Of a stretch of 21,920 bases of DNA, positions 1 through 21,920 are shown piece by piece. A program made the position numbers and the translations under genes. Below the pieces are notes generated by a model that did no database searches, was not told where the DNA came from, and saw only the letters and a program-made list of their open reading frames with translations. Source of the DNA: Psammoneis japonica (Eukaryota); contig QPGO01000186.1 of NCBI GenBank assembly GCA_008632985.1, positions 124,001 through 145,920 of the forward strand, given 5' to 3'. Numbering within the stretch: the first letter of the stretch is position 1; the number at the start of each line of letters is the position of its first letter.

Positions 1-21
1 TTTTCGCAGCGGAGTCCGGTC

Positions 22-1730: not shown

Positions 1731-1851
1731 ACCTCCCGCAAAACATACGGTAAGTATGCATCAGAAAAAGCGATTTACAAAAAGACTCTAAGTACAAAAG
1801 AAAGTGCCGTAGTCAAGACTAGCAACAAAGCTTGAAGCGTCAAAACCAAAC

Positions 1852-3897
1852 TCATTCCATGACGAGTGGCTCCCCGCCACCGCCATTTTGTTCCCGAACA
1901 TCATTGATTAGATCAGTATCTACTTTCAATACACCCTTTTCATCTTTGTAAAGAAGGTTCACGAATTGGTATCCAATACTTAAGTCCACAAAATCATATA
2001 TCTTTTGAGCGTAGACGTCTGAGGCACTCACGTTTGAGACACCATTCAAACTCACAAGAATCTGATTGAATTGAAGACTTTCCCTCACTTTAGCGTAGTT
2101 GTTGAGCGATCTCGGCCACGAGCCTTTGCTTCGTCGAATGAGTTTCCTAGCCCTAGGAGTAAGAAGAGGAGAGGTTTCATCAAGAACATGACGAGCCAAC
2201 CAAACTCGTTTGAAAAAAGGGTGCTCGCTTGCCTCAATCAGAAGCTTCGAGAAAATTCTCTTGTTCACAAGCTTTGAAGCTGGGTCCTCGTCCACAGCTT
2301 GATGATCCTTTCCCTTCCCCAGAAAATATGACAGGCCGCTGCCATGAAGAGTGGAGTCCATGAAATTCAACGCGGCACCCGAGTCAGATCCATTCTCGCT
2401 ATTTGAAAATGTCGAGGCAGAGCTGTTCCCCAAGAAACGTTGCCTATCAGTGTTTAGAGCGTCTCGCAGAATAGGATCCGCATCGTCGGCGTCAATGTTT
2501 GCCACACAGTTGAGCGACGCGTCCATGATTTCACCCCCAACTTCCCCAAAGAGGCGATTTACGATACGAAACTCCAACACTGGTAAAGGTAATTTCTGTG
2601 GCAACCCGCTGTCTTCGTCGTTGTTGTCCGCCTCGGCGAATTCATCTTCTACACCACTGCCAAAGCGAATAACGACGGGGTCGCTAAAAAGAACTTGAGC
2701 ATGGCTCTGGATACGGAGAACCTTTCCAAAGAGAATAGCGCCACAGAAACCAGAATATAGAACACCAACGAACGACTCCAACGAGCAAATGATCGTGATA
2801 AAGGCGCAATTCGAAGGATTCGAGTTTTCGTGACCAAGAGCTGGATACGTGCTTCCGTATCCCCTGCAGAGTTCAAAGAGATCGAGAAAATCATCATTGA
2901 GGAACCTTCTTACAAATAAGCATTTTAATATAGATTCCAAAACCAAAGCGAGAACTTACACCGTACTGAAAGTTGTCCAACTCAAAGCAAAGGCATCAGC
3001 AAATTTCGATTTGCCTCCTTGGTTGAATTCTAAGCCTCCGACTCGAACACACTGAGGGTCCATGTCACCAGCAATAATTATGAAACCGGCAAAAATGAAG
3101 GTCAGCCCGAAAAAGACAATGCAACTTATCAGAAACAGAAAGACAAAGTTGACCCTGAACATCCAGTGTAAGTACATTGCAAGGTTTCGCTTCCTGTTCT
3201 CGCCTTCAGCACGAGTGCCCGCGCCGCAACAAATAATACGCCGGTACATTCTCTTTCGCCAGTTGGAATCTCTCTACGGAAACGATAACAGAGATATGAA
3301 CAGAAAGAAATAAAATGAAAAATGATAAACAGAAAGTCATGTCAATTCTTGGCGTAAACCGCAGACTTACACGTCTTGTAGCGGCTAGCCTATACTGCTT
3401 GACTCGACCCTCTTCCAGAGACATGGACTCATCTTGTCTATGGAAACTTGCCTCTAGATTCGCAGGTCGTTCACAGCAGCATACTCGACGGAATAAGTTT
3501 CGCCATCGGTTCATGAATCTCTCTCGAGACCCCATAGCTTGAGCTTGATTCTCGCATCGCACCTGATACCGAGTGATCACAGGCAGAGTGAGTTGAATTG
3601 AATACACAACTTATAATTGACACAAATTGAAAACACAACATCATAAGTATTTAGAATCCCCTTGTTACTTTCGTCACTGGATTTCAACAATTCCGACGTT
3701 GCATAGGGACGTGACAGCGGCTCACGACTTACAAACACGGCTTGGCATCGATCACCCTCTTCATCGGCGGCAGGTGTAGTATCAACCGCCGGTTCTTCAT
3801 CAGCGATACTCTCTGGACGGGAAATACTACGAGCCCGAAGACCACTGGTCGCTCTGGTACCAATGTGCTCTTCCGTGTTGATGTCGTTGTCGACCAT
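1852..3897 (-). CDS. Inward-rectifier (Kir-type) potassium channel, 4 exons: 3897-3733, 3562-3371, 3273-2960, 2863-1852 (560 aa)
   Basis: Three GTAAGT...AG introns (3732-3563, 3370-3274, 2959-2864) join in frame to 1683 nt. Splicing builds the selectivity filter WTTFSTV-GYG. M1 and M2 helices and Kir motifs AQVLFSDPVVI, LEFRIVN and HVLDETSPL are present. An upstream ATG at 3996 is an alternative start. Confidence 0.9.
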
Positions 3898-4041
3898 GGT
3901 GCGGCATACGTACGTACATCGCAACTCGCAACTTTTTGTGATCTTTGGGACGGGCCGACGGTTCGTTTTGAAGTCTTGGTCTGACCATGCCACCATGCGG
4001 TCTCAGTGATTTTTCGCCATTGCTTGCCGGCACTGCTGCAG

Positions 4042-4061
4042 TAGCTACTCTAGAGTAGCTA
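4042..4061. promoter_or_regulatory. Perfect 20-bp palindrome TAGCTACTCTAGAGTAGCTA upstream of the Kir gene
   Basis: The palindrome is read directly. Its core ACTCTAGAGT also occurs at 1634-1643. A regulatory role is inference only. Confidence 0.4.
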
Positions 4062-4869
4062 GTCGACAGTGCGTGCCAGAGTTGTGCAAACAGCAGCGAA
4101 GTTATTTTTGTCATTGAAAAATCTCGACGCTGAAAATGCTTGTCGAAAATCGGCTTTCGACAGCCACTAAAACAGTTGCAGTGACTGACGAAAGCCTTTT
4201 TTCGACATCTTCGGTTGCAAGAGAGCTGCAGAGCAAGAGCAAAGTCCTGAAACATTGGGTTCCCTGGCAATTTGTGTGATGTTCATGGAGGCACCTCTCA
4301 TCAACGGAAACTGGCAAATGATTTGAAAGATTTTTGCACGCTTTTGGCGTGCATCTTCAGGCAAATCCGAGGATTGAAATGCCCGGCAACTCCAACAACA
4401 CATTGAACCCCAGCTCCATCCACCCCCCGTCCCTCACTCAAAACAAAAACAAGAAATTGATGCACATGCCATGGCTGTTGACAATGGTGAACCACAACCC
4501 AATTCGCCCAAAAGGAAACAAACTCATCTCCACAAGAAAGCCGTCAAGTCCTGCAAGAAGTGCAGGCAACCTCCTGAAGAGATCGTGGTTCACACCGGGG
4601 CTCCGTCCGCCAGCTGAGCCCAAAGAACCAGAAGAAGCCATCACCACACTGGTGCTTTGAAGCAATGCGGCATGAATGTCCTCAAGAGAATGAACCAAGG
4701 TCATTGAAAATGACATCTTGCTCAGCAAAGCTCTTCATGGTGATGACCACAAAGGCGTCATCAACGTGAACAAAGCTCAGAGGCATGCCACAGCTTGTGC
4801 ATTTTTGAGCTTCTTGACATGCCTCCTGAGGAGGAATGGGATGGTCAGAATGGAGCAATGCTCACAATT

Positions 4870-5150
4870 AAAAAAACCTGCACATCTCTCTGGGATCGAA
4901 TGTCAAAGACATCTTGCACAACATCACTCGCGACCATGAAATCGCATCGAGTGCAGCGGTGACAGGATCACAAACAGCACCATTGGCCTGTGTCCAATTG
5001 TGTCTTTTGGAAAAAAAAACCCTTGGCATCTCCCTGGATCAAATGTCAAAGACATCTTGCACAACATCACTCCAACCACGAAATTGCATTGAGTGCAGTG
5101 GCGACAGGATCACAAATGGCGCCCGTTGGCCTGCATCCAAGTTTGTCTTT
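4870..5150 (+). repeat. Diverged tandem duplication, 2 copies, period 143 bp
   Basis: TGTCAAAGACATCTTGCACAACATCACTC occurs at 4901 and 5044. Most differences between copies are CG vs TG/CA or TG vs CA. Confidence 0.85.
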
Positions 5151-5866
5151 CGATTTGCAAGAAGCCAAGATCGTTGGCAACAACATTGAAAAAGGACTTT
5201 TGGCACCCCAGACAGCTCAACTTTGCAATAAGCACCAGCATGAGCAAGGGAAAACTGCACTTGCAAGTGCTTCTGTTGACAACTTGACAGGGCGGGTGGG
5301 TGCCAAGGCACAGAAAGCCAAGACGACAAAACAAGGGAACAAAGATCCTGACTCTCCCTGGTCATGAGGAAGATGCAATTGGACTTGCCAGCTGTTGGTT
5401 TGGTTGGAAACAATTGGAGCACAAAAGAGAGCTGACAGAGATCCTGAAAGAAGTTCGCTGCTGCTCACACCTCCAGTGTGTGCCGTTGCCATCATTCCCA
5501 AACCTCCCATGGCAAGGAGCTGTTGATGATCAGCTTTCGTCTGGCTTTCTCCTTTTGCACCCGGCCTGTCATTGTGAGAAAACAACCACAACAAACACTC
5601 TCAGCCCTCCTGTTGTCTCAGCACACCCTCATCTGGGGACATTTCAACCCACAATTTTGGGCCCAGCTGCAAACAGGGGACATGGCTGTGGCCAGTTTGC
5701 TTCCTGGCACCCCACACATGCAAAGCAAACAATGGCGCCCCAATTCCCACCATGAATGGTGCAGCAGGGACCTCACTTGGGTGCTGCACCGCCATCAGTC
5801 TCTCAAAACGGTGGACGAAATTTTGAAAGCATGCTTGTTCTGGGGCGTTCAAACGTTCAAATCAAA

Positions 5867-6020
5867 ATGGCTGGGGCCAACTCAAACAAAGGTTTCATTG
5901 CTCAAATCATTGGTCCTGCACTGGACATTGAATTCCCATCAGGAGACTTGCCTCCTGTTTTGAGTGCAACAAAATTGAGCTGGAACACGGCAGCACAACC
6001 ATTGTGAGGTGGCTGCAACA
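5867..6020 (+). pseudogene. atpB: 5' fragment of plastid ATP synthase beta subunit (probable nuclear plastid DNA insertion, NUPT)
   Basis: Translates MAGANSNKGFIAQIIGPALDIEFPSGDLPPVLSATK and, after a 1-nt shift, IELEHGSTTIV. This matches the AtpB N-terminal pattern G.I.QIIGPVLDIEFP.G.LP.I..AIKI..IVEVQQ. Frameshifted and truncated. Confidence 0.85.
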
Positions 6021-6237
6021 GTGTCCGTTCAGGTCTTTAGTTCGCACTTTTCATTTTTGACACATGCAATCGCACTTGCACGTGCCAGCTGCGCACAAAG
6101 ACAATCAACACGGTCTGTCTGCCCATCCACCAGAATCTGCATGATGCGACCACTGCTGTGCTGCGGTGCGGCAGCCCGAGACACTGCAGCAAACTCATTC
6201 AACAACACCCGTGCACCCATGCACTGTGGCCTCGAGA

Positions 6238-6495
6238 TTCATCGTGAGACCCTGCAAATGTGGAGGGACCCTCCTGTGGAGCTCTGCGCGAATTTTTGCA
6301 CGTGGTGCTGAAACATGCAGCCCACACACGCAAAACTGGTGCAGCACAGTTTCTGCAACAAAAATCCGAAAAAACGCCCAGTTCGCGAGATGGCTCTGGC
6401 ACAAAACCTGCGTGAACAGTCCCCACACATTCATGCAGAACTCTGCACATTTCCGGGTTGCGGGTCCTTCCACATTTGTGGGGTCCCACGATGAA
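6238..6495. mobile_element. MITE-like element, 258 bp, with 34-bp terminal inverted repeats
   Basis: 6238-6271 TTCATCGTGAGACCCTGCAAATGTGGAGGGACCC vs reverse complement of 6462-6495 TTCATCGTGGGACCCCACAAATGTGGAAGGACCC (30/34). A subterminal inverted repeat lies inside. No clear target-site duplication. Confidence 0.65.
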
Positions 6496-8844
6496 GATGC
6501 CAGACTTCGTCCTTCAATGCGACCTCAGCCTTGACCACCTCTGCCACAATGGTTTTCCCCACCAAACTGTGTGCTCATTCATTGCCAGGGGTCTCGAGCA
6601 GCAAGGGTTGTAGCGGCACCAGCAGTCATGCTGGCATGCAGACGGCCATCCTGTGGGGTCGCACTCCACATCTCAATTGTCACCTCTTTGCCCCTGCAGT
6701 CGAAGTCAGGTTTGGAGTCGGGACATTTTGCCGCCTCGACCATGAACAAAGATTCAACTTTGTCAATGTCAGACAAAAAAGATGACATCTTTTCCTTGAC
6801 CGATTTTGTGATGACCGATGTGCACAAGATGATCAGCTAGGCCATTTGGAAGGGCGTTGAATGGCAGCAAGATTTGTGTTGTCTCCATAGATTGACCAAG
6901 GCAGAATCATGCAAATGCTTTAGCCATGCTGCATTGCACTTGGGCAACAATGCGTTTCCAGATGATGCCACCAATGAAAAACTCTTTTGCCATGCAAAGC
7001 AAGGTTGGTTCTTTCTCAAAGAGGCAGACCAACTTGCCAAGACTCGCATGAAAGAAGCCATGGATTTGGACCAGTGGGCGGTTGCGCAAAACAAACTGGC
7101 TGGGGTTTGGTGCTGAAAAGGATGTCTTGTGCTTGTCCTTTGCAAGGGAATGCAGATGGGGGCTGTCCCATGAACACCGTGCCTTTTCTGCCAACAAACG
7201 CTGACTTGCGTGGTCTGAGTTTTCGTCTTCTAATGCAACAAGGGCCTTTCTTCTGTTCAGCTGGCTGCCACCACACTTGTCACACCTGTCCAATGGGCCC
7301 AATGCAAGGCAGAACAGTTGACTCCATGGTGCAGTCGACTCTGATGCCAGGGCAAAATGCTGACATTCAATGGTGGCAAACATTTGGGATCTGAAACAAT
7401 TTCTAGTTTCAGAAAAAAACATTAGATTGACCTGACTGACATGCAAGTTCATCTCCTAAAAAGCCATTTGAGTTGCTTCTTTTGCTGTTTGTGCTCCAGC
7501 CGCACTTGGCAATGGCCACAATTTTCTCCAATCTAATTTGCCTGAAAAATTTGCAGTGTCATTTTTGTGAAATTCAGTGGAAGAGGCGATGAATGGCTGC
7601 TGTTGTAATTTCACAGATTGCTGTTTGCTGGAGCAGGCACTGTCAGGTGCCGGCGATGCCCGTGGCGCATGAACGGTGGGCGGAAACTTCCGGCAATCCA
7701 AAGGGGAAGATGCTGGGAGAATGTTTGATGAACCCTGTTGGTCACATGTTGAGTCACACCTGCAGCAAGAGTCCCTCATGCAAAGTCAATCAAATTGACA
7801 ATCGTGGCGAAGCATTTCATTTGGCGGTGCATTGGCTTGATTGTTTGCAGCAGGAAGATCCAGCATGCTTGCCACTCTGCCAAGAACTGTGCCACCATCA
7901 AAGCCAAATTGTTGAAGAATTCAAGCACTGTCAAGGTCATGCTGTCGATCTGGGCAGGTGCTTCTTGTTTGATCCCGACAAAGGCAAAATGGCGATGAGC
8001 CCTTCACCTGCCCTTTCAACCATTTTGGATCATTTTGGATGCTGAAGTGAAGATGTGTTGGGTGCAGCAACATCGGCGCTTGGTTAAAAGAAGAAACATC
8101 CTTCATGTTTGTGGGCATTCAACAGCTCATGTGCACAAATGCTCGCACCACCCTTTTGTTGTGTGTTGTTGCTGCCAGTGTCACCATGTGATGCTGCCAC
8201 TGCAACATCTTGCATCTCACAATCACCAACATCTTGCTGCTCACAATCATCGAGGCGCAGTTGTGGCAGTGGCAGCCATGACATTGTCAACAAGTCAACT
8301 GCACATGCACATGATTTGAATCTGTGCCTGGCATGGTCACAAAATGCAAGTTTGTTTTTCAACTGCGCTGGCTTGTCCTTTCTTTTCAACAATCCCGGCT
8401 TCAATGTTGGCATCGTCAACCACCTCTCTGATCTGGATGGCCAAATCCATCCACCAAAATGACACTGTTGGGACAATCTGTTGAGTTGTCATTGAATCCA
8501 CACTGACTTTGTCAAATGCAGCAAACAGCAGCACTGACCTTTGCCTTCTTGACAAAAAGTCCTCCCCTCAAATTCATTTTGTGCATCGCAAAGCCATCAT
8601 TGAGAGCTCCAACTTTGATCCATCAGCAGCAGCCAGAATTTTGATGGCGTTCCCAATGGCGATGATCCAATGCAAAAGAATGATCAAGTCTTTTGACAGT
8701 CTGCTGCATGCGTTGTTGGAACATGGAACAAACAAATCCCAAAGATGCCACCGATGTGGTTTTCCCTCTAGAGAGTCAGTGGACTTGGAAGCAGCAGGGG
8801 CTGCATGCCCATCATTGACATTGATGGGAAAGTCTGGGTCTTCA

Positions 8845-9092
8845 CACTTCATGATGCAAGCTCTCCATCAAAGAAACAAGTGTCCTGAGAGTCTTCTTGG
8901 TCATGCAATCAGCTGGCATTTGATTGGCGGGCAATGCTCAATCAGTGCATTGCCTCTGATGGCTTGGTCATGGACAAGAAACATCTGATGTTCAATGCAC
9001 TGGTTCGCTGCCCAGAGCTCCTCTTTCATCAGTCTCTGGGAGGATTGCAGCCTTGTTGTCTTGTCAGATGGCATTCCGTGTTGCATCACACC
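8845..9092 (-). mobile_element. Ty1/Copia (CoDi-like) remnant, 3' half of RNase H
   Basis: Minus strand reads GCDATRNAI*QDNKAAILPETD, then FLVHDQAIRGNALIEHCP and MPADCMTK in shifted frames. This matches Copia RNase H (YQDNKSAILLE...IEYCPT..M.AD..TKPL). Confidence 0.85.
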
Positions 9093-9459
9093 TGCACTAT
9101 GCTCGAAGAACGAGTGTAAACGAAAGTAGAATGGTGTACGAAAAGTGGAAATTATAAGATTAAATTTTGCTCTGTGATTTTTGGTTTCTCCGAACGAGTT
9201 CTCAATGGCCTAAAGCTTCTGTACTGCTTCTACAGACAAAAGGCCTTTCGGAGAATATATTCGTGACAACAGATTGTCCGGATACGATTGCTATTGACAC
9301 GTAAGATGTCAACATCGTCAATCGATCGTATTTGCAATTCTCGACATCCGATCAACTCTGTGTGATCGTTCTGTCCTTTGTACGCATCCACGACTGTGGT
9401 ACGATTGACATGTGAATAATATATAATCATAAATATGTATATAACAGTCGCATACTGCA
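9093..9459 (-). repeat. 3' LTR of the non-autonomous Gypsy element (367 bp)
   Basis: 360/367 identical to 13464-13830. Terminal inverted repeat TGCACTATGC...GCATACTGCA. Confidence 0.95.
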
Positions 9460-9471
9460 TTCGCCTCCCTA
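9460..9471 (-). other. Polypurine tract of the non-autonomous Gypsy element
   Basis: Minus strand AGGGAGGCGAA directly precedes the TG of the 3' LTR. It resembles the PPT of the second Gypsy (GGGGAAGCGAG). Confidence 0.8.
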
Positions 9472-12400
9472 ATTGCACATTAGAGTCATTTGTAAGTGGA
9501 TTATTCGACGGACATCGACAGTGTCAATAATGTCTCCACTTTCACTGTATTGTGCCATTAGCAATAACTGTTGTTGTTTTGTATAGGCAATATAGGGCCG
9601 TTCCAATTTCCGAATGTCTTTTGAGAGTGACATTGTTTGTTTCTCACTTAACATGTATATATATAGTATTACGTCGAGCATTCTCATTGACGTTCTTGTT
9701 GACATGAACACAAGGACTAATTGTCCTGGAGCAAGTGTTTTTCCTGACATCGATTGTACATAGCATCGTGCCCAGCACTTAATGTACGCTCTTAATTATG
9801 GCGTTCACTTGCTTGCTTCTTGTGGATTTCATGCAGTTTGGCGGGCTTGCTTTACATGCCATGTTGCTCTGCTGCACTGCCACGTTTCACAAGCAACAAC
9901 AAACGATGGTCAAAGACATTGTGACCATTTCGTCTTGACAATCAATCCTGTGATGGTCATGAATTCCATTGTGGATTTTTTTTTTTTGCACTTCAACCAT
10001 CTATCAGTTGGATTTTAATCGTCATTTGGACGTTTCTTTCTGACACACCGGTGTCATTTTGTCATTCCGAAGGCACTGGTTTCGTGCACCAAGTGGACAA
10101 ATGTCCATTTTTCTTTTCTTTTTCTAGATCTTTGGCACATCTCGTGTGTCGACATGATGCACATTTTAATGTCTTGCCTCGTACATTGTACAACACAACC
10201 GCACGGGTGTTGTGAGATTGTCTTTTGCCAGTGTGAAGTGGGTGCGTATAATGTGCACCAATCTGTCACTGTTTTTTCCTAAATCGCCCTTCAAAAAGGC
10301 GATTTTATCCTTGTGACATGAGCATTTTTCGATCTCGCTCGCCTCCACGAAAAGTGTTCGTATGATGTGTCGCGTCCGACAATTTGGAGGGAATGTCTTC
10401 ATCCCGTTTTAACGGCAGGACATTGTCGCAGGATTCAATTTTCTGTGGCAAGTCGGCTGATCGCGTCTGTCGCGACGATGTTCGCCTTGCCCTCGTTGTG
10501 TTCTAATTCGGGACTGAAGTTGTCAACGTGTGACTTTGTCCGTTGTGTCTTGTGATCCATGTGTGCATAAATCTGTTGGCCAAACAGCATGTTTCGGAAT
10601 TTTGTGAGTGTTTTCACCATGGACAGAAGTTCTTTTTTCCGTTGTGACGCACAACATTGAAATCCGTGCATGACAACAACACAGTTTTTGATTTGATGCA
10701 CTCCACATTTTCGGAGACTTTTCGTTCCGCACTTGTGCTTTTGCCGTTTGACCTTTGTTGAGGTGAATTTGGCTGGCATTGCACAGGAGATCGTTGAGAC
10801 TGCATGTCTCGACAACAGCAACGCATGACAACGAGATGTCGCAGTGTTCTTTGCGTTTTTCTCGTGTTGCGATTGCTTGAATCGCCTCCATTTTCTTTGC
10901 AATCGATTGCATGTCGTTGCGTGTGGAAGTCTTGATAGTTCATTTCAAGTTAAACAGTGAAGGACTTTTGTTGTCAACCTTCTAAGCGACTGTTCTGGTC
11001 GTTTGAATGCCGCGTTGAGCTGTTGCTTGTGCAGGTGACATTTTGAAGTTACTTTTGTCAGGCACAAACGATCACATGTGGTCATTCTGACAACTTCAAA
11101 CCTGTCATGAGTTCACTCAAGTGTTGTGCAAAAACATCTGGGGCTCTGTGGATTCTCATTGGAAGTCCACAGTGCTCATTTTCTCCCCACGGCATGATTT
11201 TCGTGTGAGCACGACGTGTGCTTTTTTTATTTGACATGGTGGCATTCCATGTTTGAATCAAATGGATCACACACATGAAACGTTCTTGCTTCAATGGCAT
11301 TTCCTGAATGTTGGGCAAAGGACACACCACCTGTGTGAACCTCACACTGAGCTTCTGAGTGTCGGATGCGGTCGAACTCGACCTGTTTTCTTCAGACAAT
11401 GAGTCTCAGAGCGACTCATTCAGAGCAACTTCATTCTCAAGACTTCAATCTTTCACAATGGGTCAAACTCCTTTTGATTGGATGCCTCCAAAGACTGTGA
11501 CAGGAGAAGGTTCTCACGCGTCGTGGAATCGCGTCAGATTTTCCACGATGAGATCCACTGATGCTTCCCATGCATTCGTCTGAGGAACTTTTCAAAACGA
11601 TTTCAACCTCTTAAGAAGAAGATTGAGTTGGTTGTGTTCATTTGGGTTAGATGCATCGCCGCAGTTGTCACTTGATTGAGATCGATGGCGTGACAATGTG
11701 AGTCGAGGACCATTGGTTCCATCATCAACTCTGTTCACGGCGTCACATTTTTCAATGTGATCGGTTTTCAGCTTGAAAACATCGGCATCGAAGAGTGTGT
11801 GAACATTCTTCATAAGGTAATTGCTTCTTCCCATTAGATTTCTTCATTTGCGTAGTCCAATGTGACTTGCAGGACTGGACATTAAGTCGCGTCCCATGAT
11901 CACATCATTCGAACCTGAAGAAAATTTGGTGTTTTCAACATTCACTGTTTGCATGTCAGCATGCCTTAAATTTTCGCACAGTGAGAACTGAATTCGGTGT
12001 TTACTATCAGTCGTAAAGAGCTCACCCTTGGTTTCCCAAGTTTTTGGTGGCGGATTCTTGTGTTCTCAACTTTCGCACGAATTTGCGCAAAATTGTGGTT
12101 GACGATGTTCCGTTATCGACAGGAACACGTAGATGCTTTTTTTTTTTTTTTCTCTCCTTTCCCAAGGAAGTGTTCATACAAATGATGACTCCTGGACTAG
12201 TGTGAATTATTTCTGCCTTTTTTCTAGGCTTCCTAACATCCAGCAAAGCATGTAATTCGTGAATAGACCAAAATTATTCTTCGGATTCAGTCTGGATCAT
12301 CCGATCAAATTGGCATTTTTCTTCACTGAGGGTATCAGAATCTGATTCTTTGCCCTTATGCTCTTTTTCTTTGTTCAAGGAACTCGCTTTGAGCATTTTT

Positions 12401-13463
12401 TGAACCGCCTGATCAATCATGACGTTCATCTCTTTTTTTGCGAGCGGCATTTTCGTTGTCGCGACGCGACCGCGTGCGATTGCCATTTGAACGGCGCATT
12501 TTTGGGTCTCTTTCAGAGTCACCCTTGCACTCTTTTGCTAGTTCATTTTTAGAACAGCTTCAATCCGTGATGTAGGTATTCTTTTTTCAAAGATAAGACC
12601 TTGCATTCACTTTGGATTGTTCTGGTACCACACAGGAGACCATTTTTGGAACCAAATTTGGAACCTTTTTTATTTTGGAACCAACTGCGCTATCAGAGCC
12701 TGAGTTGATATGTATTTTCGTCACGGACGTCATGAACGACCTTTAGATGACTCAAAACTTAATCAGCTCATCAAGGATGAGTTGCAATAGTTGATTGTTT
12801 TGGACAGTAGACTGATGCTGCCATCCTTGCGGTGCGAGTGATGGCCAATAGCTCACGGCTCGGTTTCCCGCTAGATTCAACATAGAATCGATTGAAGGGT
12901 CGTGTGGACGCTCTTCATTGACCTCTTGGGTCGAATGGGCACTCTCTTGCTGCTGAGAGCCTTGGGTTTCTTCAGATCATCTCGAAAATAATGATTCTGA
13001 TTCTGAAGTGCAATTCTTGGAGGACATGAGATAAGAGACTCTTAAGGTACTTTCCAATGGTTCCATCTTGCTCTTGGACTCGAGGCTCGTCGATTCGGTC
13101 TCTAAAAACTCTCCAATAGTCTCTCCTTGCATGCCAGACGTATTTCTCGGACCTGATCGACTCAAGACTTGAAATTCTACCCAACCATGACTTGGTGTGG
13201 ATATTTCGACAATGCTGTGCTCTTGTAGAGTCCTTGGTCCTGAGACACTTGGAATGGATCGTATTAGAACGAATCTTGTCATTTGCTAGACGAAAAACAG
13301 CGTTCCATCTTGAGGTGCTGCTCGGATTGAGCTTCTTCCGCTCGGAAATCGATTCCAGCAGAACTGATGCGATTCGTTCCTGTTTATAGAAGAATTTACA
13401 AAGGCACATTAGTTAAAATTTTCATTTTCCGTGCTTTTTACCTTCTGTGGTGTGTATACACAA

Positions 13464-13830
13464 TGCACTGTGCTCGAAGAACGAGTGTAAACGAAAGTAG
13501 AATAGTGTACGAAAAGTGGAAATTATAAGATTAAATTTTGCTCTGTGATTTTTGGTTTCTCCGAACGAGTTCTCAATGGCCTAAAGCTTCTGTACTGCTT
13601 CTACAGACAAAAGGCCTTTCGGAGAATATATTCGTGACAACAGATTGTCCGGATACGATTGCTATTGACACGTAAGATGTCAACATCGTCAATCGATCGT
13701 ATTTGCAATTCTCGACATCCGATCAACTCTGTGTGATCGTTCTGTCCTTTGTACGCATCCACGACTGTGGTACGATTGACATATAAATAACATATAATCA
13801 TAAATATGTGTGTAACAGTCGCATACTGCA
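13464..13830 (-). repeat. 5' LTR of the non-autonomous Gypsy element (367 bp)
   Basis: Direct repeat of 9093-9459 with 7 substitutions and no indels, followed by CACC. Confidence 0.95.
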
Positions 13831-13834
13831 CACC

Positions 13835-14420
13835 CTTGTGCCTCCACAAAGAGCTTGGTTCACAAGACCATCACACTGCAATCATCGACGGTGACAAGCT
13901 CTGCAGTTGTGCTGGAACTGGCGCTCAGCTTCTGTTTTCATGAGATCCATTGAACAGCTCCTCTTTGGATGTTGTTGAAGATCTGGGTGCCTCTGGCATG
14001 GCTCTTAAAATCAGATGTGCTGCAAAACTTGCATTGACAAACCATTTCACCACAGAGATGTCTCACTCGGTGCCAATTTGTTGAGCGCTGAACTTGGTGC
14101 AATCCAGCCATTTTGTCACAATGACAAGACTCTGCTGCCAATTGTTCTCAGCAGGTTCCTTTGCTCTTGCACACAGGACTGCAAAAACATGTTGGATGTC
14201 CTCACCCTTTTTAGCATGCTTGCAATTGAACAGAGCCTTCTTGGCAACAAAGGTCCTGAAGATCTCATTCGCCACTTTTGGCCGAGCAGTTTGTCAGGCT
14301 TGTGATCAAATGGATCATCTTGAGCTGGGTTTGCACAAGTGACATCAGGCACAAACTTGATGGGGAATTTGTTTGCCATTGACACGACACACTGGATCAT
14401 GTCCATCTCTGGGATTTTCC
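13835..14420 (-). mobile_element. Ty1/Copia (CoDi-like) remnant, end of RT and 5' half of RNase H; continuous with 8845-9092
   Basis: Minus strand reads DMIQCVVSMANKFP, EIFRTFVAKKALFNCK..DIQHVFAVLCARAKEP, VKWFVNASFAAH, and DFKSH..S*KQKLSASSSTTAELVTVDD..TKLFVEAQG. Confidence 0.88.
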
Positions 14421-14449
14421 AACCAATGAGCTGTTTGTCTCTTCATCTG

Positions 14450-14670
14450 TGTAAATTGCCAATGTTGTGAGGTTCAATGCACTTCCCAGTGGCTGGTCAA
14501 TCTGCCTGAAATTTTGTGCATTCGGCCAATGAGAAGTGGGTCCCACCAGCCAGCATCTGCCCTCCACCAATTTAGTTGGGCAGGCTTGTCAATTTTGGCT
14601 TGCTTGTTGTGCAGACAGTTTTGGGTTGCAGGCTTGACTTGTTTGATTGCTTCCAACACACTCCTGTTCC
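14450..14670 (-). mobile_element. Possible Copia PPT/3' LTR start (CAGGAGTG|TGTTGG, LTR starting at 14658)
   Basis: Minus strand GGAACAGGAGTGTGTTGGAAG resembles the junction I recall for diatom Copia elements. No partner LTR in the window and the extent is uncertain. Confidence 0.4.
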
Positions 14671-15430
14671 ACACTGATCAGGGTGCAAGGTTGAATGATG
14701 CATGGAAGATTGTGGGTCTGCAAAGCTCCAGATCTGGAGTCACAGCTCCAGGACATCTGGATCCAGGTTGTGTCCATCTGTCCTCTCCCCAGTGAGCTCC
14801 ACCCGGATGACATTCGTTGCATCACACTCACACACATGTGATGTGGATGGCATTGATTAAGGCTGGGTCCATTGCAGTTACAGGACAATGTAGAATTCAG
14901 TCTAGTGCGGCTTTGGTGCAGCTGTTGTTGGTCGTACAGTGGGCCAAGTATCAGCAACACATGAAACAGCAATGTAATGTTGTGCGGTAGATGCTGTTTT
15001 GGTGTGTCGACTACGGTGACAACACCGATGTTCGACGCATCGCCTACGGCGACAACAACAACGAGAATAGCCGGTCGTCGTTGGTTAACCACGCTGACAA
15101 CTGGAAGAAACACAAACGTCATCGAAACAACCTTCTCTGGTGTATCAATGCAGCCAAGAACGGGCATGAACAGGCGATAAATGGATTTGAAACGACTATG
15201 TTAATAAGGAAACAACTAAACTGGACACTTCGGGTCCTCGGCATGTCATCGGATAGAATGGAACGAAGTAGCGACGACATATTGCAAGTGTAAAATAGGA
15301 TGGCAAGGATCGACGTAACGTGTAAACGCGGCGGTCCCATTCAACACTTCATTCTTCAAGCTGGCTCGTGGTATTGTAGATAAGTTGTCATCACCATCAT
15401 CTATTCCTAGTCAAACCTCCCCACCGATCA

Positions 15431-16393
15431 TTATTTCTTTTTCTTCGGATCAGGCTTGTTGTTCAGGTAGATGTACCATTGAAGAGCGGTTGCAACCGCG
15501 ACCCAACCACAGGTAGGCAAAAGGTAGTAACCTGCCACTTTATCCAAGTCGTAGAACAAGTACGCACTGCTCAATAGGCATGCAAAGAACAGGGTGATTA
15601 CGGCCGCGCCACGACCGGGACATTGCAGACCAAAGAACACTTTATTCCAAGTGTCACCCAATGCCAGATGGGAGCAGTACACGAACAGCACCCCCAATGG
15701 AAGTGACGTCGTCCCGTCGATTTTTGACGTGCCATATTTTAAGATCCTTGACACACCACATAACTGTGTGGGTTTACTGATCAAGAGCCACATGATCGGG
15801 AAGACGTATCCTGGTGGATTCCACCATGGTTTCTTAAGTTGAGAATACCATTGGCTATCTCCCGGGATGACGTCCGGTGCGAGAACTTGGTTGGTAGCGG
15901 CAGAAAGCCCTCCATCGATGAACGATCCGAAGAAGGAGCTAGCGAAGATGATAAGGAATGCTGCCACAAGCTGTGTCAAGGGCAAGTTGAAGACAGACGG
16001 TATCGAATCGGGATACTTGTCAGACAATGCCACACTTCCCACTAAGGTCCCTAACATCACCACCGCCTCCAATACAGCGCTGATCGCAAGCTTGGCGAAT
16101 AGACTTGGATCGGAATCAGCACATCCCCCACCACGTAGTGTTTCTACCAATATCAAAGTCGAAGACGGTAAATGACTTGTTAGTCCATTGACATTGGGAA
16201 CATCGATTTCTTTGTCGATACTGTGACGACGGGGATGAAGGCTGTGACGTTGTTGCTGTTGGTGAAGCGTAACGGTGGCCCAACCGTTCGGGTTCGGAAC
16301 TGCATCGACACCACCACCCGCGAGTCCCAACAACAACAAAAAAACACCACCACAAGAAGTGATATACAAAGCGAGACGCGTTCCAATCTTCAT
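15431..16393 (-). CDS. tspO: TspO/MBR family protein with signal peptide and N-terminal extension (320 aa)
   Basis: Motifs WYSQLKKPWWNPPGYVFPIMW, WNKVFFG and LLPTCGWVAVATALQWYIYLNN. Likely start MKIGTRL at 16393 (ORF open to 16462), with a hydrophobic signal peptide, a TLRGG motif and C-terminal KKKK. Confidence 0.9.
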   Translation of the reverse strand: MKIGTRLALYITSCGGVFLLLLGLAGGGVDAVPNPNGWATVTLHQQQQRHSLHPRRHSIDKEIDVPNVNGLTSHLPSSTLILVETLRGGGCADSDPSLFAKLAISAVLEAVVMLGTLVGSVALSDKYPDSIPSVFNLPLTQLVAAFLIIFASSFFGSFIDGGLSAATNQVLAPDVIPGDSQWYSQLKKPWWNPPGYVFPIMWLLISKPTQLCGVSRILKYGTSKIDGTTSLPLGVLFVYCSHLALGDTWNKVFFGLQCPGRGAAVITLFFACLLSSAYLFYDLDKVAGYYLLPTCGWVAVATALQWYIYLNNKPDPKKKK

Positions 16394-16827
16394 GGCGATC
16401 CGATTCAAGTTCAGTACCGGTAGAAATGTTGTTGTTGTTTCTATTTCAATTTCACGGTTCATTTTTTTAGGGTTTTTTAGGGAAACCTTTTATTTACGGT
16501 ATCCATACTGTACTGTACGGTACTTACGCTGTGTGTGGAGTTCAAGCACGTGCAACGTCACCCAGTGGCGCGGGGGGAGGGCAGACCCAAGATGATCCGC
16601 AGATCGAAGATCCTGGATGTCTCGCCTCTTCTCGCCTGGGACCTGGGACAATCATTATGGTAACATACTGGTAACAAGCCTTGACGCTCCGCCCTTTTCG
16701 ATTCCCTCCTGAAGCAGAAGTACTAGTAGGTCGAAACGAGAAGGTCTGAAGATCGAGGAAGCAAAACGTTAATAGTGTGTAATTCTCTCTTGCATTTGAT
16801 CTGTTGATTCTTCTCTAATTTTCCGCA

Positions 16828-17944
16828 ATGTCGTCAGTGCCTGAAACCATGAAGGTATGTACAGTAGATGAAAGAACAAGCTTGAAGTGTGGTGCACGTT
16901 TTCCTTTTAACTTTCAAATCCACCAAACACCAAACGACTCAATTCCCATCGCAGGCAGTAGTGATTCATGCTACTGGTGATGCTCAATCTCTCAAGGTCA
17001 CGACCGATTATCCGACACCAACTCTCGAGCCCGGCCAGGTCCTGGTCAAGAATGAATTTGCAGGAATTAACTTTATCGACACCTATCACCGCAGTGGACT
17101 GTATCCTCGTAAGTTGCCCTTTATCCTTGGCGTGGACGGTGGTGGCGTTGTTGTTGCGGTAACTCCCGAGGCTGCTGACGTCAAAGTGGGAGATCGTGTT
17201 GCCTACAGCATGGTGGAAACCTATTGCGAATACACGGCGGTGCCGGCATCCAAGCTTGTTCCTGTTCCGGACGATATGGACATGACGGTTGCTGTAGCGT
17301 GCATGGTCCAGGGCTTGACGGCTCACTACCTCACCACGTCGGCTCATGCAAACCTGATTCAAAAAGGAGAATGGTGTCTCATTTACAGTGTTGGTAGTGG
17401 AACTTGTCAGTGGGCCGCTCAAATGGCAAAAGCAAAAGGTTACAAGGTGATTGGAACGTGTTCCAAAGGAAAGGCTGACGCTGTGCGAGCACTGAATTGT
17501 TGCGACGAGCTCATTGTGTTGGAAGAAGTTCAGGGAGCGTCGTATTCGGATTACAGCAGCGTGGATATAGTTGAAAAAGTAATGGAGGTTTCGGGTGGGG
17601 AGGGCGTGAAATGCATTATTGATGGAGTTGGAAAGTCAACGGCCGACGTTTCATTGAGTTGTCTCGCAACAAGGGGCATTTTCATTTCGTTTGGCAACGC
17701 GTCAGGGCCTGTACCTGCCTTTCCAGTGCTAAAACTGGGTGGAAAGTCAGCTTTTGTGACTCGCCCAAAGGCGAGCGATTACACAGCCACGCGTGAAGAA
17801 CTCATGGATCGAGCGCGCGATGTGTTCGGTTGGGTAAAAGACGGAACACTGAAAATTGTGGTGGACCAGGTGTTTGCCTTGGAAGATGCTGTGGATGGTC
17901 ACGTCTATCTGTGCCAAGTGGCGCCAAGTAATAGTATAAAGTAG
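16828..17944 (+). CDS. qor: NADPH:quinone oxidoreductase (zeta-crystallin/MDR family); exons 16828-16854 and 16955-17944; last 10 codons are LTR-derived
   Basis: MSSVPETMK, a 100-nt GTATGT...CAG intron, then AVVIH. Motifs AGINFIDTYHRSGLYP, VQGLTAHYL, DGVGK and FGNASG. Similarity stops at HVYL (17911), where the LTR begins. Confidence 0.9.
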
Positions 17945-18202
17945 CGTTGTAAAATTGACTGTTGCTAATATTGTGAGAAGAAATGAAAGAGATTCGGCTA
18001 CTCCGAAATCTCGTAGAATTAATACTAAGAAACCGCGTAGAAATATAAAGAAACAATCTTTCGAGAGGCATCGAGATGTATCGAGAAAGGAGAAGAGGTT
18101 TCTAGAAAGTGTCATCGTTGACATCCTTTTGACACTTTTGACATCAGGCTGACACCCACGAATGAATATACGAATGAATATAGATGACCGTGATACTCGG
18201 CA
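17912..18202 (-). repeat. 3' LTR of the second Gypsy element (291 bp)
   Basis: Bounded by TGCCAAGT...ACTCGGCA (7/8 inverted repeat). PPT GGGGAAGCGAG at 18203-18213 lies just after the pol stop. Internal tandem CGAATGAATATA x2 at 18159-18182. The partner LTR is outside the window. Confidence 0.8.
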
Positions 18203-18223
18203 CTCGCTTCCCCAATTGAGACG

Positions 18224-20728
18224 TTAGAAGACAGGGTGAAGACGGCGGATATTGATACGTTCAGTGACGTGAGGCGAGCGCTGGATGGTAACGGTTCCAT
18301 TGGTATGGACACGTACGATACGGAAAGGACCATCTTTGGTGTTGAGTTTGCGTTGGATGTCTTTGGTCATAACGAAGACTTGATCGCCGATGTTGTAGTC
18401 GTAAGTAAGACGTTTTGCGTTTTCGCGGAGATTATTGCGTAGGACATCGCGCTTGCGACGGGTATTAATCATTTTCCAGTTCGCAAGATAAGTAGCAGAA
18501 ATGACCATGTCTCGACCGAAGACAATTTGTCCGGGAGACGACATAAGGGCAGTATGGTAGGTACTGCGCAAGGCCCATGCAACGGATTGCAAAATTCCAT
18601 GAATTGTGTCTTCATCATGATCGCGAGAAGGGAGATCCATCGCACGGAGAGAATCGGCTATTACTTGATGAATACGTTCAACGAACGCGTTGGCTTGAGG
18701 ATTCTTGATTGTTGTAGGTTTCGGTTTAACACCATAACTGTAGAGGAGATCTGTAAACTCGGAAGTGAATTCGGAACCGTTGTCATAAATGACAATTTCT
18801 GGTCGCGGATAGCGACAAAACCACTCGCGATCGACGATAAGTGAAATGTCTTCGGACGTTTTGAACTTATAGTTCGCGAGTTCGACCCAACGGGTTGCGA
18901 CATCAATAATTGAAACGGCTCTGATTTTGCGATCGACACCATTTTTGTCGGCACACGTCCAGGGACCGAAAAGATCGACTTGAGTTGCCTGCCAAGGTTT
19001 ATAAGTAGTATCTGGAAGAGGTAATTCGCCATAGTTTGCCGTAGCACGCTTGGATTTGGAACACGTGCGGCACTTACGGACAAAAGTGCGGACTTTCGTC
19101 TGCATGTCGCGAATGTAAAAATGTGAAGCCAAAGTTTGGCAGGTGCGATTGGCACCAGGGTGGCAGAGAGTTTCATGGTGCCACCGTAGAACTGCAGGAA
19201 AAAGCGTTGGAGGGAGGACAATCTTGTTCTTGTAAAGGACAATCTGTTTTCCATTGAACAGTTCGGCTGAGCAGGATTCGGACTTGTCGAGTCGTTGCTG
19301 AAGAGCAGAATTTTTTTTCTGATGGTCGGCGACAATGTCGAAAGTAATGGGGAATGTCGAAGGATCGATTTCCAACGAAGTCATTTCCTCGTAATCGCTT
19401 TGATCGACTTGGACAATGGGATGGCGGCTCAAAAAATCAGCCACGACATTCTCATGGCCTGGCAGGCACTCGAAAGAGCAATCGCACTCCTCGAGAAGTA
19501 AACGCCAGCGTTTGACGCGTTCTGACTTGAATTTGTCAAATGCAAGATTTTTGTGATCGGCAAATGGGTGGCATCGATGACCAAAAAGGATGCTTTTGAA
19601 ATTTTCGGTCGTTTCCACGAGCGACAGCAGCTCTTTTTCCATTGTCGTGTAGTTTCGTTGCGCTTGAGACAATTTTCGGCTGTAGAATGCAATTGGCCAT
19701 TCGCCATCATCAAAATCTTGAGCAATCACTGCACCAAGTTGACAATCACTCGCATCCGGATAGATCTTGAAAGGTTGAGAGAAGTCGGGGAATCGGAGGA
19801 GGATTTCGCGCGCCACAATTTTTTTCATCTGATTGAAAGCTTCCGTGTGGACGTCAGTCCACTTGAATTTGACTTTGTCTGATGACAGCGCAGTTAAGGG
19901 CGCAAGAGTGTGGCTGCGTCGGCACCACAATTTCTTGCAATGATTCACGAACCCGATGAAACCACGCAATTGTCGACGGTTTTGAGGGCGAGCGAAGCAA
20001 AGTGAGGGTGGGATTTTCTTTTTCTGAGGCTGAGTGCCTTTTGCAGTCATGGTGCAGCCCAAGCAGTCGACGGTCTTGGCGGCGAGATGGGATTCTTCGA
20101 CATGTGCGTGAAGATTGTTCGCGAGGAGCCGTTGCAAGACGAGTTTGAGTCGTTGACAGTGATGGTTGAAGTTGTTCTTGGCAAAGAGGATGACATTGTC
20201 GATGCAGACTATGATGTCTTCCATGTCATGAAAAATGTCTGTCATGCAAGCTTGAAAAATGTCGCTTGCCGGTTTGATTCCTTGCGGCAGGCGGTTGCAG
20301 CAATGCTTGCCCCACGGCAGGATGATGCCGCAGAGTTTTTTTGACTCGTCGTCAAGCACGAAGTGACAGTAGCCTCGGTTGAGGTCCAAACATGTCGCAT
20401 GGGCAAAGCCGTTCATTTTCCATGCGACGTCGTCGATGACAGGCAGTGGATGTGGATGCCGTTCGAGACACTCGTTGAGTTTCCGTAAATCGGACAAGAA
20501 ATGGATGCCACCGCTTTTCTTCGATCGGAAAAGACAGGATGCGTCCCAAGGAGAGTGAAGTTTGCGCGTGATGACATCGATTTTTTCCAATTCATCCACT
20601 TCTTTGCGAGCCATGGGACACAACGCTTGCGGAACAGTGCAAGCTTTCGCACAGCATGGACGCGATCCTGGTTTCAGGGTCAAATGGACGGGTTTACCGG
20701 GTGCAGCTCCAAGTGTGCCATCGAACAA
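18224..20728 (-). pseudogene. pol: Gypsy pol (RT-RNase H-integrase), open for 834 codons but with a mutated RT active site (CIDN for YIDD)
   Basis: RT motifs LDLNRGY, RLPQG and VCIDN; RNase H DASD..LGAV and EKELL; integrase HHCC finger, VDLFGP, DNGSEF and NPQANAFVER. Confidence 0.93.
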
Positions 20729-20832
20729 TTGCGGGTCGTCCGAAGAGTTCGATGAGTTGGTGCTGTTGATCGTTCAAGGTGTTTGCAGCGTAGAACCATG
20801 TCGCGACAATTGTGCTTGTCGTGCATTGCTCG

Positions 20833-21270
20833 TCATACCTCGAACCTGACGGTTGACGGCATTCTGGAAGAACTTGGGCAATTCAGCATCGCCGGGATGA
20901 ATTGCATTAACTTCGACTTGGTCGAAAGAGCCCTTGGATCGCATGGATAGGGTACATCGTCCCACGTGATTGTTTGATGTCGAAAATCAAAAACGAGTCC
21001 CATTTCTGTGGCGGTTTTTCTTCCGATGACAATGTCGTGTTTTCCTGCGGCTTTGTCTTCCACACAAGCATCGACGGAAACCTTCTTGGACGATGCGAAG
21101 TCTGGGAACTTCAATGTCAGCGTCGCAATCTCGTGTAGATTAACGGCACTGTAACGGCCTTTAACGGGAACGTCATTTACGGATTTTGTGAGGAATCCCG
21201 CGAAGGGCTGAGCGCTTCACAAAATTGCGATTTGCGCCGGATCGAGTAGCAACACGGAACTTGTGCATTC
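20833..21270 (-). pseudogene. Gypsy aspartic protease region, frameshifted
   Basis: LLD(S)GANRNFV at ~21220-21255 needs a 1-nt correction. KHDIVIGRKTATEMGLVFDF..ITWD follows downstream. Confidence 0.75.
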
Positions 21271-21321
21271 CAGAATGAGTGTCAATCATCTGGACACGCG
21301 CTTCCGTGGTAAGATTGTCTT

Positions 21322-21920
21322 CTATTCGGATTCGATNNNNNNNNNNNNNNNNNNNNNNNNNNNNNNNNNNNNNNNNNNNNNATCGTCTGACGCGACGCTA
21401 TCGACATCGTTAGAAGCGGAGCGACTAGCTTTGGAGTCCACATTGTTGTTTTCGACGTTCCGTGTGCGGCTCCGTGTAGGACAGCGGTGTGTCGGCTCGT
21501 TTCGAGAGTTGTTTTGTTGATTCGGCGCATTCCGATTTGCGCGGTTCCGCTCATAATTTTCACGTTCACGACGGATGACATTGCACTCTTGACCGTTCGG
21601 ATGTACAACGCCATGGATTGGACATGTTTGTTCACGATTGTTTTGGTTCCTGTTCCTGGTGCGATTTTGGTCGTTGTTCTGGCCGCGACGCGCATTTCGA
21701 CCGTTGTTGCGTCGATTCCAATTGTTGTTGCGTCTGTTGTTGTCGGTAGACCCTTTGTCACCACGTTGTTCCATACGTCGGAGAGTCTCGTAGTTTGAGC
21801 TTGGTCGTTCAAGTTTAAGTTGCGAAGACGGGCTTTAGTCTGAGTTTCGGCCCATGATCTTGGTCCACATTTTCGAAGGATTACGGATAATTCCGCTTCC
21901 GTGAATGACGGAACTCTTTC
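21322..21920 (-). CDS. gag: Gypsy gag C-terminal part (Asn/Arg-rich, CPIH-x3-H-x5-C knuckle), partial
   Basis: ORF 21322..21774 contains CPIHGVVHPNGQEC and lies upstream of the protease. It spans an N gap. Confidence 0.7.
21337..21381. other. Assembly gap (45 N)
   Basis: Run of N in the sequence. Confidence 1.

Follow-up and report, generated by a model that had tools for sequence, protein, structure and literature searches.

Loss of conserved tyrosines in a Ty3/Gypsy retrotransposon probably reflects DNA-level TpA hypermutation of integrated mobile DNA

Introduction

How could the reverse transcriptase (RT) of an integrated retroelement lose its conserved tyrosines to cysteine and histidine within a reading frame that stays open? 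The question is raised by a 21,920-nucleotide (nt) stretch of contig QPGO01000186.1 (positions 124,001 to 145,920), referred to here as the window. Its minus strand carries, at 18224-20773, an open reading frame (ORF) of 849 codons, counted stop to stop, which the ORF list, Pfam matches and an alignment identify as the RT, RNase H and integrase of a Ty3/Gypsy element. An initial annotation of the window had proposed that the RT/RNase H part was inactivated by a systematic change of Tyr to Cys or His without stop codons, that the codon changes TAY to TGY or CAY fixed the direction as loss of the dinucleotide TpA, and that the element was young and caught at an early stage. We found that the substitutions and their direction hold and that they belong to a regional conversion of TpA to TpG or CpA, and that the claims about the element's age and integrity fare less well. 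The conversion is likely the work of a targeted, DNA-level hypermutation of integrated mobile or foreign DNA, a judgment that leaves the identity of the enzyme aside.

Results

We compared the pol ORF with Pfam and recovered RVT_1, RT_RNaseH_2/RT_RNaseH, Integrase_H2C2 and rve, which is the domain order of Ty3/Gypsy elements, with RVT_1 scoring just 42 bits. A degenerate protease (PR) region upstream aligned with relatives, giving the order PR, RT, RNase H and integrase characteristic of Ty3/Gypsy (Metaviridae). Relatives were sought in a 5.8-billion-sequence protein collection, which yielded 663 matches, the closest at no more than 59% identity; the closest proteins were gag-pol polyproteins of about 1,420 amino acids (aa) from marine metagenomes and from one MMETSP transcriptome. 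We aligned the ORF with 15 relatives (43 to 59% identity) and defined a tyrosine column as one with Tyr in at least 75% of these 15, which gave 23 columns. The window had Tyr at 9 of them, Cys at 9, His at 4 and Asp at 1, and all 13 Cys and His residues lay in the RT/RNase H half. All 14 changes fell within codons 13 to 532, where 14 of 17 tyrosine columns were altered, versus none of the 6 in codons 581 to 793 (Fisher test, P value = 8 × 10−4). Within codons 1 to 540 (20773-19154, minus strand), the part of pol that bears the Tyr-to-Cys/His changes in the alignment, changes were much more frequent at tyrosine columns (14/17) than at the remaining conserved ones (38/254, P value = 8 × 10−9).

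The relatives keep Tyr at the affected columns, and the Cys and His residues are thus derived, at 13 of the 23 conserved tyrosines, as the initial annotation had supposed. They include most of the motifs that it had picked out, namely GYCHF (Y136C), WGKHCC (Y157H and Y159C), VCIDN (Y190C), VDCLGC (Y237C and Y240C), VNHC (Y278H and Y279C), EECDCSFEC (Y432C and Y436C) and WHHETL (Y532H). RHPHPLP and DASDCQLG are weaker cases, their columns being variable in the relatives (Y/F/H/V; Y in 8/15). VCIDN had been derived from YIDD; its Cys is indeed a replacement of Tyr, but its Asn is not derived, the RT motif being YIDN in 12 of the 12 closest relatives and YLDD in three distant ones. We therefore rejected the D-to-N difference in this motif as a trace of damage. 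The reported scarcity of Tyr, about 1 residue against about 19 Cys in the first 320 or so aa, was confirmed (1 Tyr, 19 Cys and, in addition, 17 His in codons 1 to 320). Over codons 1 to 540 the window had 1.1% Tyr and 9.6% Cys plus His; among the 120 of 663 relatives listed, Tyr made up 2.75 to 5.35% (median, 3.80%) and Cys plus His a median of 4.02%, and none of these 120 was Tyr-poor.

Fifty-two conserved columns were changed in codons 1 to 540, and a single step from TpA to TpG or CpA accounted for 19 of them: 13 Tyr to Cys or His, 2 Ile to Met, 2 Ile to Val, 1 Thr to Ala and 1 Val to Ala. The companion codon changes that loss of TpA had been predicted to leave were thus present alongside the tyrosine losses. 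As controls, a model of CpG decay accounted for 2 changes and three other dinucleotide models for 0 to 5. In codons 541 to 849, 1 of 10 conserved-column changes fitted TpA to TpG/CpA. Read on the coding strand, the TpA-type changes comprised 14 A>G and 5 T>C, which indicates that both strands were struck. Changes of other kinds had about twice the frequency in the RT/RNase H half (33/252) that they had in the integrase half (9/134; P value = 0.06), at most a faint indication of a mosaic history. For polarization at the DNA level, the protein search gave no relative above 59% identity, and a metagenome scan gave three loci of 22 to 39% identity, too distant to be of use.

The hypermutated core of the element (19251-20750, affected on both strands) contained 11 TpA in 1,500 nt, an observed/expected ratio (obs/exp) of 0.11, compared with 61.7 expected at the level of host genes (Poisson P value = 2 × 10−15); the integrase part had an obs/exp of 0.67. 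Counted per 250 nt, TpA fell from 12 to 15 (17751-18500) to 1 to 3 (19251-20750) and rose to 5 to 6 in gag-PR, and the TpA remaining in the core was scarce in all three codon phases. The sum of TA, TG and CA per kb was nearly the same in the core (167) and in the integrase part (174); this near-constancy indicates that TA was converted and that the base composition did not simply shift. The coding-strand obs/exp in the core was 1.43 for TpG, 1.16 for CpA and 1.17 for CpG. With a coding-strand CpG obs/exp of 1.56 in the integrase part, the Gypsy element showed no CpG depletion, and the remark that CpG remains abundant was upheld (obs/exp of at least 1.17).

The same depletion recurred elsewhere in the window and spared the host DNA. 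Three tracts had a TpA obs/exp of 0.05 to 0.13, versus 0.63 to 0.65 in the host parts (1-4168 and 14858-17911), so that in this one window the loss is restricted to foreign or mobile DNA. Besides the Gypsy core, the tracts are a block of 5.9 kb that we call block A and a second long terminal repeat (LTR) element lodged in it. The first part of block A (4169-9092) had 15 TpA in 4,924 nt (obs/exp, 0.05; P value = 7 × 10−68) and a sharp left edge at 4168/4169; its continuation past the second element (13835-14857) had 4 TpA in 1,023 nt (P value = 1 × 10−14) and a sharp right edge at 14857/14858. Altogether 19 TpA are left in block A (obs/exp, 0.05 to 0.06), with edges exact to within a few bases. 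Block A is also CpG-poor (10.8 to 24.6 CpG per kb versus 52 to 57 in host DNA), and since the younger elements retain CpG, TpA loss seems to have come first and CpG decay later.

Thirteen overlapping ORFs, each 120 aa or longer, are spread over the two strands of block A. Across 107 ORFs in and around the block, Pfam recognized no retroelement homology and nothing other than a C-terminal fragment of monomeric isocitrate dehydrogenase (IDH) at 7593-8042 on the plus strand (PF03971, E value = 3 × 10−19; profile positions 602 to 734, the last 130 or so residues). Compared with solved IDH structures, the fragment reads FHLAVHW for FYLAMYW, GRCF for GGYY and SCK for SRK, that is, Y>H and Y>C together with a CpG-type R>C. 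No upstream part of the IDH gene was recognizable around the fragment, which may be a captured piece, the relic of a duplication or DNA of foreign origin. Terminal repeats of block A were not found, even with purine/pyrimidine recoding, and neither were inverted repeats of at least 36 nt; a repeat search on the unrecoded sequence likewise gave no inverted repeats. There is a direct repeat within the block (4893-4981 and 5036-5123, spacing 142 to 143 nt, in two parts 97% and 82% identical); its copies are identical in purine/pyrimidine code and thus differ by transitions only.

The second element (9093-13830, minus strand) is a degraded Gypsy-like LTR element with weak homology to Gypsy pol (23 to 38% identity) and a core (10401-12000) with a TpA obs/exp of 0.13. 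A repeat search, extended by purine/pyrimidine recoding of the window, placed its LTRs at 9093-9459 and 13464-13830; they are 367 nt long, run from TG to CA and are flanked by a 4-bp duplication, CACC. The two LTRs differed at 7 of 367 positions, and each difference set TpA against TpG (6 positions) or CpA (1 position), with no difference of any other kind; the mutated state lay in one LTR at 3 positions and in the other at 4. All seven differences are therefore A:T-to-G:C transitions confined to TpA, in agreement with the preserved sum of TA, TG and CA. Since the LTRs of an element are identical at integration, these seven differences arose in the chromosome, and the loss of LTR TpA since insertion comes to about 11%. 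On the coding strand, the gain of TpG exceeded the gain of CpA in both retroelements (19251-20750 and 10401-12000), and the two gains were near equal in block A.

We then asked which bases flank the TpA that were lost, by comparing the 46 TpA surviving in the three tracts with 453 TpA in host DNA and little-mutated element parts. The relative survival of RTAY was 0.00 (0/46 survivors versus 133/453 in the baseline, P value = 6 × 10−7), that of YTAY was 0.05 and that of RTAR was 0.12; YTAR survived best, at 0.33 (24/46 versus 74/453, P value = 2 × 10−7). RTAY presents TAY on both strands and YTAR on neither, so that this ranking fits a target A in 5′-TAY-3′ with TAR mutated more slowly. The flanking bases thus point to TAY as a preference and not as a rule. 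As TAY is the tyrosine codon, tyrosines are the main casualties at the protein level.

An enumeration of TpA-to-TpG/CpA changes in every codon context gave no sense-to-stop change; TAG is turned into TGG or CAG, and TAA into CAA or TGA. A spectrum without sense-to-stop changes keeps frames open and can even lengthen them, and the open frame of pol is for this reason no sign of youth, as it had been taken to be; the TpA-poor block A, with its overlapping ORFs, illustrates the point. The claim that 19150-21100 is free of stop codons holds inside the 849-codon ORF, but the interval also takes in a TGA (20774-20776) and a shift of frame.

Nor is the element otherwise intact. The gag and protease remnants (20767-21920, minus strand) are cut by the window end and show an intermediate loss of TpA (obs/exp, 0.34 to 0.44). 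tblastn placed them in frames −1 (21920-21795), −3 (21792-20767) and −2 (from 20956), versus a single frame in the relatives. This amounts to at least two frame changes and five premature stops (TAG at 21322; TGA at 21286, 21217, 20833 and 20774), four of them in frame −3 and the fifth, the TGA at 20774-20776, in the pol frame; the protease motif is degenerate. A run of N, 45 nt long, lies within gag at 21337-21381, where either the assembly has a gap or the sequence was masked. At the other end, the 3′ LTR (17912-18202, minus strand) measures 291 nt, runs from TG to CA on the element strand and has a normal TpA obs/exp of 0.87; directly upstream of it lies a polypurine-tract-like run, GGGGAAGCGAG on the element strand (18203-18213, minus strand). 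The window stops inside gag, and the 5′ LTR and the target duplication lie beyond its end.

The Gypsy element sits in a host gene for a quinone oxidoreductase (QOR; 16848-17911, plus strand), which has a 100-nt GT..AG intron (16853-16952) right after the start codon. The 3′ LTR starts exactly at the break in the QOR frame, and the insertion removes about the last 14 codons: the window protein ends in ..DGHVYL and runs into the LTR, and its homologues end in ..EGHLYLESGKSRGKLLYKV. We compared 13800-21300 of the window with contigs from three runs (X1, X2 and X3) of one sample. One X2 contig tracks QOR as far as 17911, beyond which its translation reads ESGKSKGKLL, the missing C terminus, so that an empty-site form of QOR exists and the insertion is not fixed; it is heterozygous or polymorphic. 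The empty and filled alleles differ at 14 letters in 959 nt (locally at 12 in 184), and with this divergence "not fixed" need not mean very recent. The X2 contig skips 16853-16952, whose GT..AG ends mark it as an intron, and is probably derived from a transcript. Over 16948-17131 there are two X1 contigs with depths of 37.4 and 35.4, one equal to the window and the other with 12 differences in 184 nt; the sample thus seems to contain two haplotypes or strains that have diverged strongly. No X2 or X3 contig covered the interior of the Gypsy element, and X3 had none across 13800-21300.

The depth of the X1 contigs was 45 to 60 over host genes and 250 to 2,600 over 17816-21300, and 518 X1 contigs matched (152 at 99% identity or more, 176 at 95 to 99% and 190 at 90 to 95%). 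These depths make the Gypsy element one of a family of some 5 to 45 copy equivalents, and the contigs 5 to 45 times deeper than single-copy DNA are mostly TpA-poor as well. It is accordingly doubtful that the element was caught at an early stage, and its not being fixed is a separate matter. The X1 contigs vary from the window at 82 places, 69 by transitions and 13 by transversions, with 11 of the 13 transversions in the 24 host-part rows listed; the Gypsy part varies almost solely by transitions. Of the 89 variable places 40 are listed, which makes counts of shared and private TpA hits bounds. Among the 14 Gypsy rows listed, 6 pair CpA or TpG in the window with TpA in the other copies and 2 pair them the other way round; 4 are of the CpG type, and the last 2 are ambiguous (TG versus CA at one site). 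Some TpA hits are therefore private to the window copy or to a minority of copies, and most of the TpA loss seems to be common to the bulk of the family. The lineage of this copy had probably already lost the RT/RNase H tyrosines along with the gag-PR frame, and it would have been mobilized in trans through LTRs and further cis-acting parts that still worked; once inserted in QOR, this copy probably went on collecting TpA hits.

Homologues of QOR speak to the identity of the host. All 9 with a named source came from diatom genera (63 to 68% identity; the best other match reached 73%): Corethron (two), Cyclotella atomus, C. meneghiniana, Mayamaea pseudoterrestris, Eucampia and three with partial names, which we take to be Grammatophora, Synedropsis and a Cyclo- genus. 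By this homology the host is most likely a diatom, and not Bigelowiella. The neighbor of QOR is a TspO/MBR gene (15431-16489, minus strand). Two host ORFs near the left end of the window, 1852-2955 (minus strand, 367 aa) and 22-1143 (minus strand, 373 aa), had no Pfam match at an E value of 0.1 or below; in the former, a hydrophobic segment comes after a GYG-like stretch, an arrangement that may recall the pore of a potassium channel, although this is an impression only.

Discussion

We propose that a host process acts locally on integrated mobile or foreign DNA and spares host genes. It would change T:A to C:G almost only at TpA, giving TpG or CpA according to the strand struck, and would prefer as its target an A with a pyrimidine on its 3′ side (5′-TAY-3′). 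Tyrosines of RT/RNase H would become Cys when A>G falls on the coding strand and His when it falls on the other strand; as no stop codons would arise, the frame would remain open and the enzyme be destroyed. The sequence itself establishes the spectrum of the changes and their direction, their confinement to sharply bounded elements, their occurrence after integration and the preference for certain flanking bases. Much of the damage in the Gypsy copy would have been inherited from an already mutated, nonautonomous lineage mobilized in trans, with further hits at this locus. By analogy, the process may be a host-driven defense of the kind described in Bigelowiella natans. Its chemistry is a more tentative matter: deamination of adenine to hypoxanthine in DNA, with a TadA/ADAT-like deaminase as the candidate enzyme, is a reasonable guess that we would put somewhat below an even chance.

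Several observations weigh against this proposal or strain it. Set against the integrase part, the Gypsy core has gained more TpG (+0.41) than CpA (+0.15) on its coding strand, and a purely symmetric DNA process predicts no such bias; transcription- or RNA-linked strand bias may underlie it. The LTRs (obs/exp, 0.80 to 0.87) and the integrase part (0.67) are spared, whereas the cores are 85 to 90% depleted, which a process uniform over the whole element would not predict, so that an extra assumption is needed. Selection for cis-acting parts in lineages mobilized in trans, recombination or nonuniform targeting could each supply it: survivorship of functional LTRs would explain the spared LTRs, but not the spared integrase part, which may owe its state to recombination in its origin or to uneven targeting. 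TAR was the context of 2 of the 7 LTR changes and of 2 of the 8 TpA-type rows among the 14 Gypsy contig rows listed. Outside the listed host rows, at most 24 places have A or T in other copies (at 10% or more of the depth) and G or C in the window, compared with some 60 TpA lost in the core as estimated from the density in the integrase part; most of the loss hence seems to be shared across the multicopy family and to have arisen elsewhere than at this locus. Finally, the whole case is drawn from one 22-kb window and contigs of one sample, with no de novo mutation among the evidence, and run X1 may be the assembly source of the window and in that event would not be independent of it.

Some of these same observations would be expected if the changes had been made before integration, either by A-to-I RNA editing at UA or by deamination of adenine in single-stranded cDNA, a counterpart of APOBEC3. 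Such a source would account for the coding-strand bias, seen also in the 14 A>G against 5 T>C, for nearly unmutated LTRs beside depleted cores, for a Gypsy insertion that is heavily mutated and yet not fixed, and for family contigs that are in bulk TpA-poor alike. The LTRs of the second element tell against it, since they were identical at integration and differ only at TpA, as do the T>C changes on the coding strand: both A>G and T>C are present, which a one-stranded mechanism acting before integration does not give. Moreover, the most depleted tract is block A with its IDH fragment, in which no retroelement homology was found among 107 ORFs. In APOBEC3G gradients, minus-strand cDNA remains single-stranded longest near the polypurine tract, but in our element depletion is lowest beside that tract. 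The process in B. natans, too, acts on integrated DNA that is not retroviral (bioRxiv 10.64898/2026.01.13.699255). The in situ LTR changes, block A and the hits on both strands make it hard to attribute the changes to editing of retroelement RNA alone, and we regard a preintegration origin as unlikely. We hold the same low opinion of a modification of thymine at TpA in silenced DNA (for example, a 5-hydroxymethyluracil-like base) that mispairs with G and yields T>C on either strand. TpA reads as TpA on the opposite strand too, and A>G on one strand is consequently indistinguishable from T>C on the other; likewise, the flanking preference reads equally well as 5′-RTA-3′ for a modified T. Hydroxymethyluracil in dinoflagellate DNA is reported to favor TpA and TpC, and we know of no hydroxymethyluracil-like base in diatom DNA. 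For a deaminated adenine, the natural site of bacterial TadA is UAC, which makes UA(C) a TadA-type substrate context. The authors of the B. natans preprint likewise prefer adenine deamination, with an ADAT2-like candidate (bioRxiv 10.64898/2026.01.13.699255), which speaks against thymine modification.

Two further explanations carry much less weight. Modified bases in heterochromatic repeats could have been miscalled in sequencing or assembly; the tracts do coincide with repeats that are likely silenced. However, separately built X1 contigs reproduce the TpA-free sequence (152 of 518 at 99% or more), including a 1,582-nt contig over 13949-15522, in the continuation of block A, that has single-copy depth (58.8) and only 4 other letters, and miscalls on two strands would add CpG at former TpA, where CpG is in fact not raised and in block A is depleted. 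An artifact is very improbable on these grounds. We give still less credence to selection on composition, such as avoidance of UpA in RNA or codon adaptation, in place of a mutation bias. The mild underrepresentation of TpA throughout the window (host obs/exp, 0.64) agrees with it, but the loss has removed invariant tyrosines of a catalytic domain, affects all three codon phases and noncoding DNA, and ends at the edges of the elements; the neutral differences of the LTR pair contradict it. Targeted TpA hypermutation of integrated DNA thus remains the explanation that we favor.

If this explanation is correct in a diatom-like genome, TpA hypermutation is no peculiarity of a single species; it would be stronger here and act on LTR retrotransposons, and a group that is genetically tractable and ecologically important would be added to its known range. 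A preference for TAY over TAR would give a sharper motif with which to hunt for the enzyme, and a natural DNA adenine deaminase, should there be one, would be of interest for base editing. There are practical consequences as well: such tracts retain spurious long ORFs in every frame, swell gene predictions and raise the local GC content, and TpA hits break the dating of insertions from LTR divergence, since that dating assumes a uniform rate.

Among known systems, fungal repeat-induced point mutation (RIP) resembles the pattern in the window in acting at the DNA level, in being dinucleotide-specific and limited to transitions, and in inactivating repeated or mobile DNA with host genes left alone. 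RIP turns CpA into TpA, however, and thereby enriches TpA and makes stops, whereas here TpA is destroyed, GC goes up and no stops can arise. The C>T at CpA, gain of TpA and loss of GC that mark RIP are accordingly absent from the window, where TpA is lost and the relatives fix Tyr as the ancestral state. APOBEC3 and ADAR in animals offer a second parallel, as deaminase-type, context-dependent hypermutation of retroelements that becomes fixed in genomic copies; their changes (G>A for APOBEC and sense-strand A>G for ADAR) are made before integration and on one strand, unlike the changes described here, which affect both strands of DNA that went on mutating after integration. TadA, ADAT2-ADAT3 and the base editors derived from TadA may be likened to the proposed process in their manner of working only: they deaminate an A that follows U or T, comparable to the TAY preferred here. 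We know of natural DNA editing by these enzymes solely from work cited in the B. natans preprint.

The closest counterpart comes from B. natans. In mutation-accumulation lines of this alga, 230 of 231 mutations in integrated nucleocytoplasmic large DNA virus (NCLDV) and virophage sequences were A>G or T>C; the GC-biased changes were all at TpA, arose at rates of about 6 × 10−7 per site per generation and occurred in only some lines, and the TpA-poor coding sequences were enriched in reverse-transcriptase and DDE domains, according to the preprint (Mettrop et al., bioRxiv 10.64898/2026.01.13.699255). The preprint also names an ADAT2-like deaminase as a candidate enzyme. The window and that account share a near-exclusive A>G/T>C change at TpA giving TpG or CpA, a depletion of TpA coupled to a gain of TpG and CpA, and the presence of reverse-transcriptase domains among TpA-poor sequences. 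They differ in the host, which here is a diatom (a stramenopile) to judge by homology and there a chlorarachniophyte (a rhizarian), and in the targets, here LTR retrotransposons and a block with a gene fragment and there an NCLDV and a virophage. Depletion is near complete here (obs/exp, 0.05 to 0.13), versus 0.45 in the NCLDV region of B. natans. The B. natans study has experimental mutation accumulation, and the pattern in the window is known from its sequence alone; conversely, we have the evidence of an LTR pair and a TAY preference, and the words trinucleotide, flanking, context and diatom do not occur in the main text of the preprint. Full-text searches of the literature gave no report of a TpA signature in diatoms, and neither did look-ups of terms in passages of a paper on diatom retrotransposons (PMC2806351) or in a preprint on diatom transposable elements (10.1101/2025.10.24.684338). 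On a speculative note, to which we would give somewhat less than an even chance, diatoms could possess an A>G counterpart of RIP: a TAY-specific, locus-targeted defense by DNA adenine deamination that erases mobile or foreign DNA, has Tyr codons as its chief target in proteins, makes no stop codons, is shared with chlorarachniophytes (being either old in the stramenopile-alveolate-rhizarian group or transferred) and leaves RT-dead elements to spread in trans while their LTRs escape. The B. natans preprint is the only description of such a spectrum that we found, and the probable diatom case extends it to another algal lineage.

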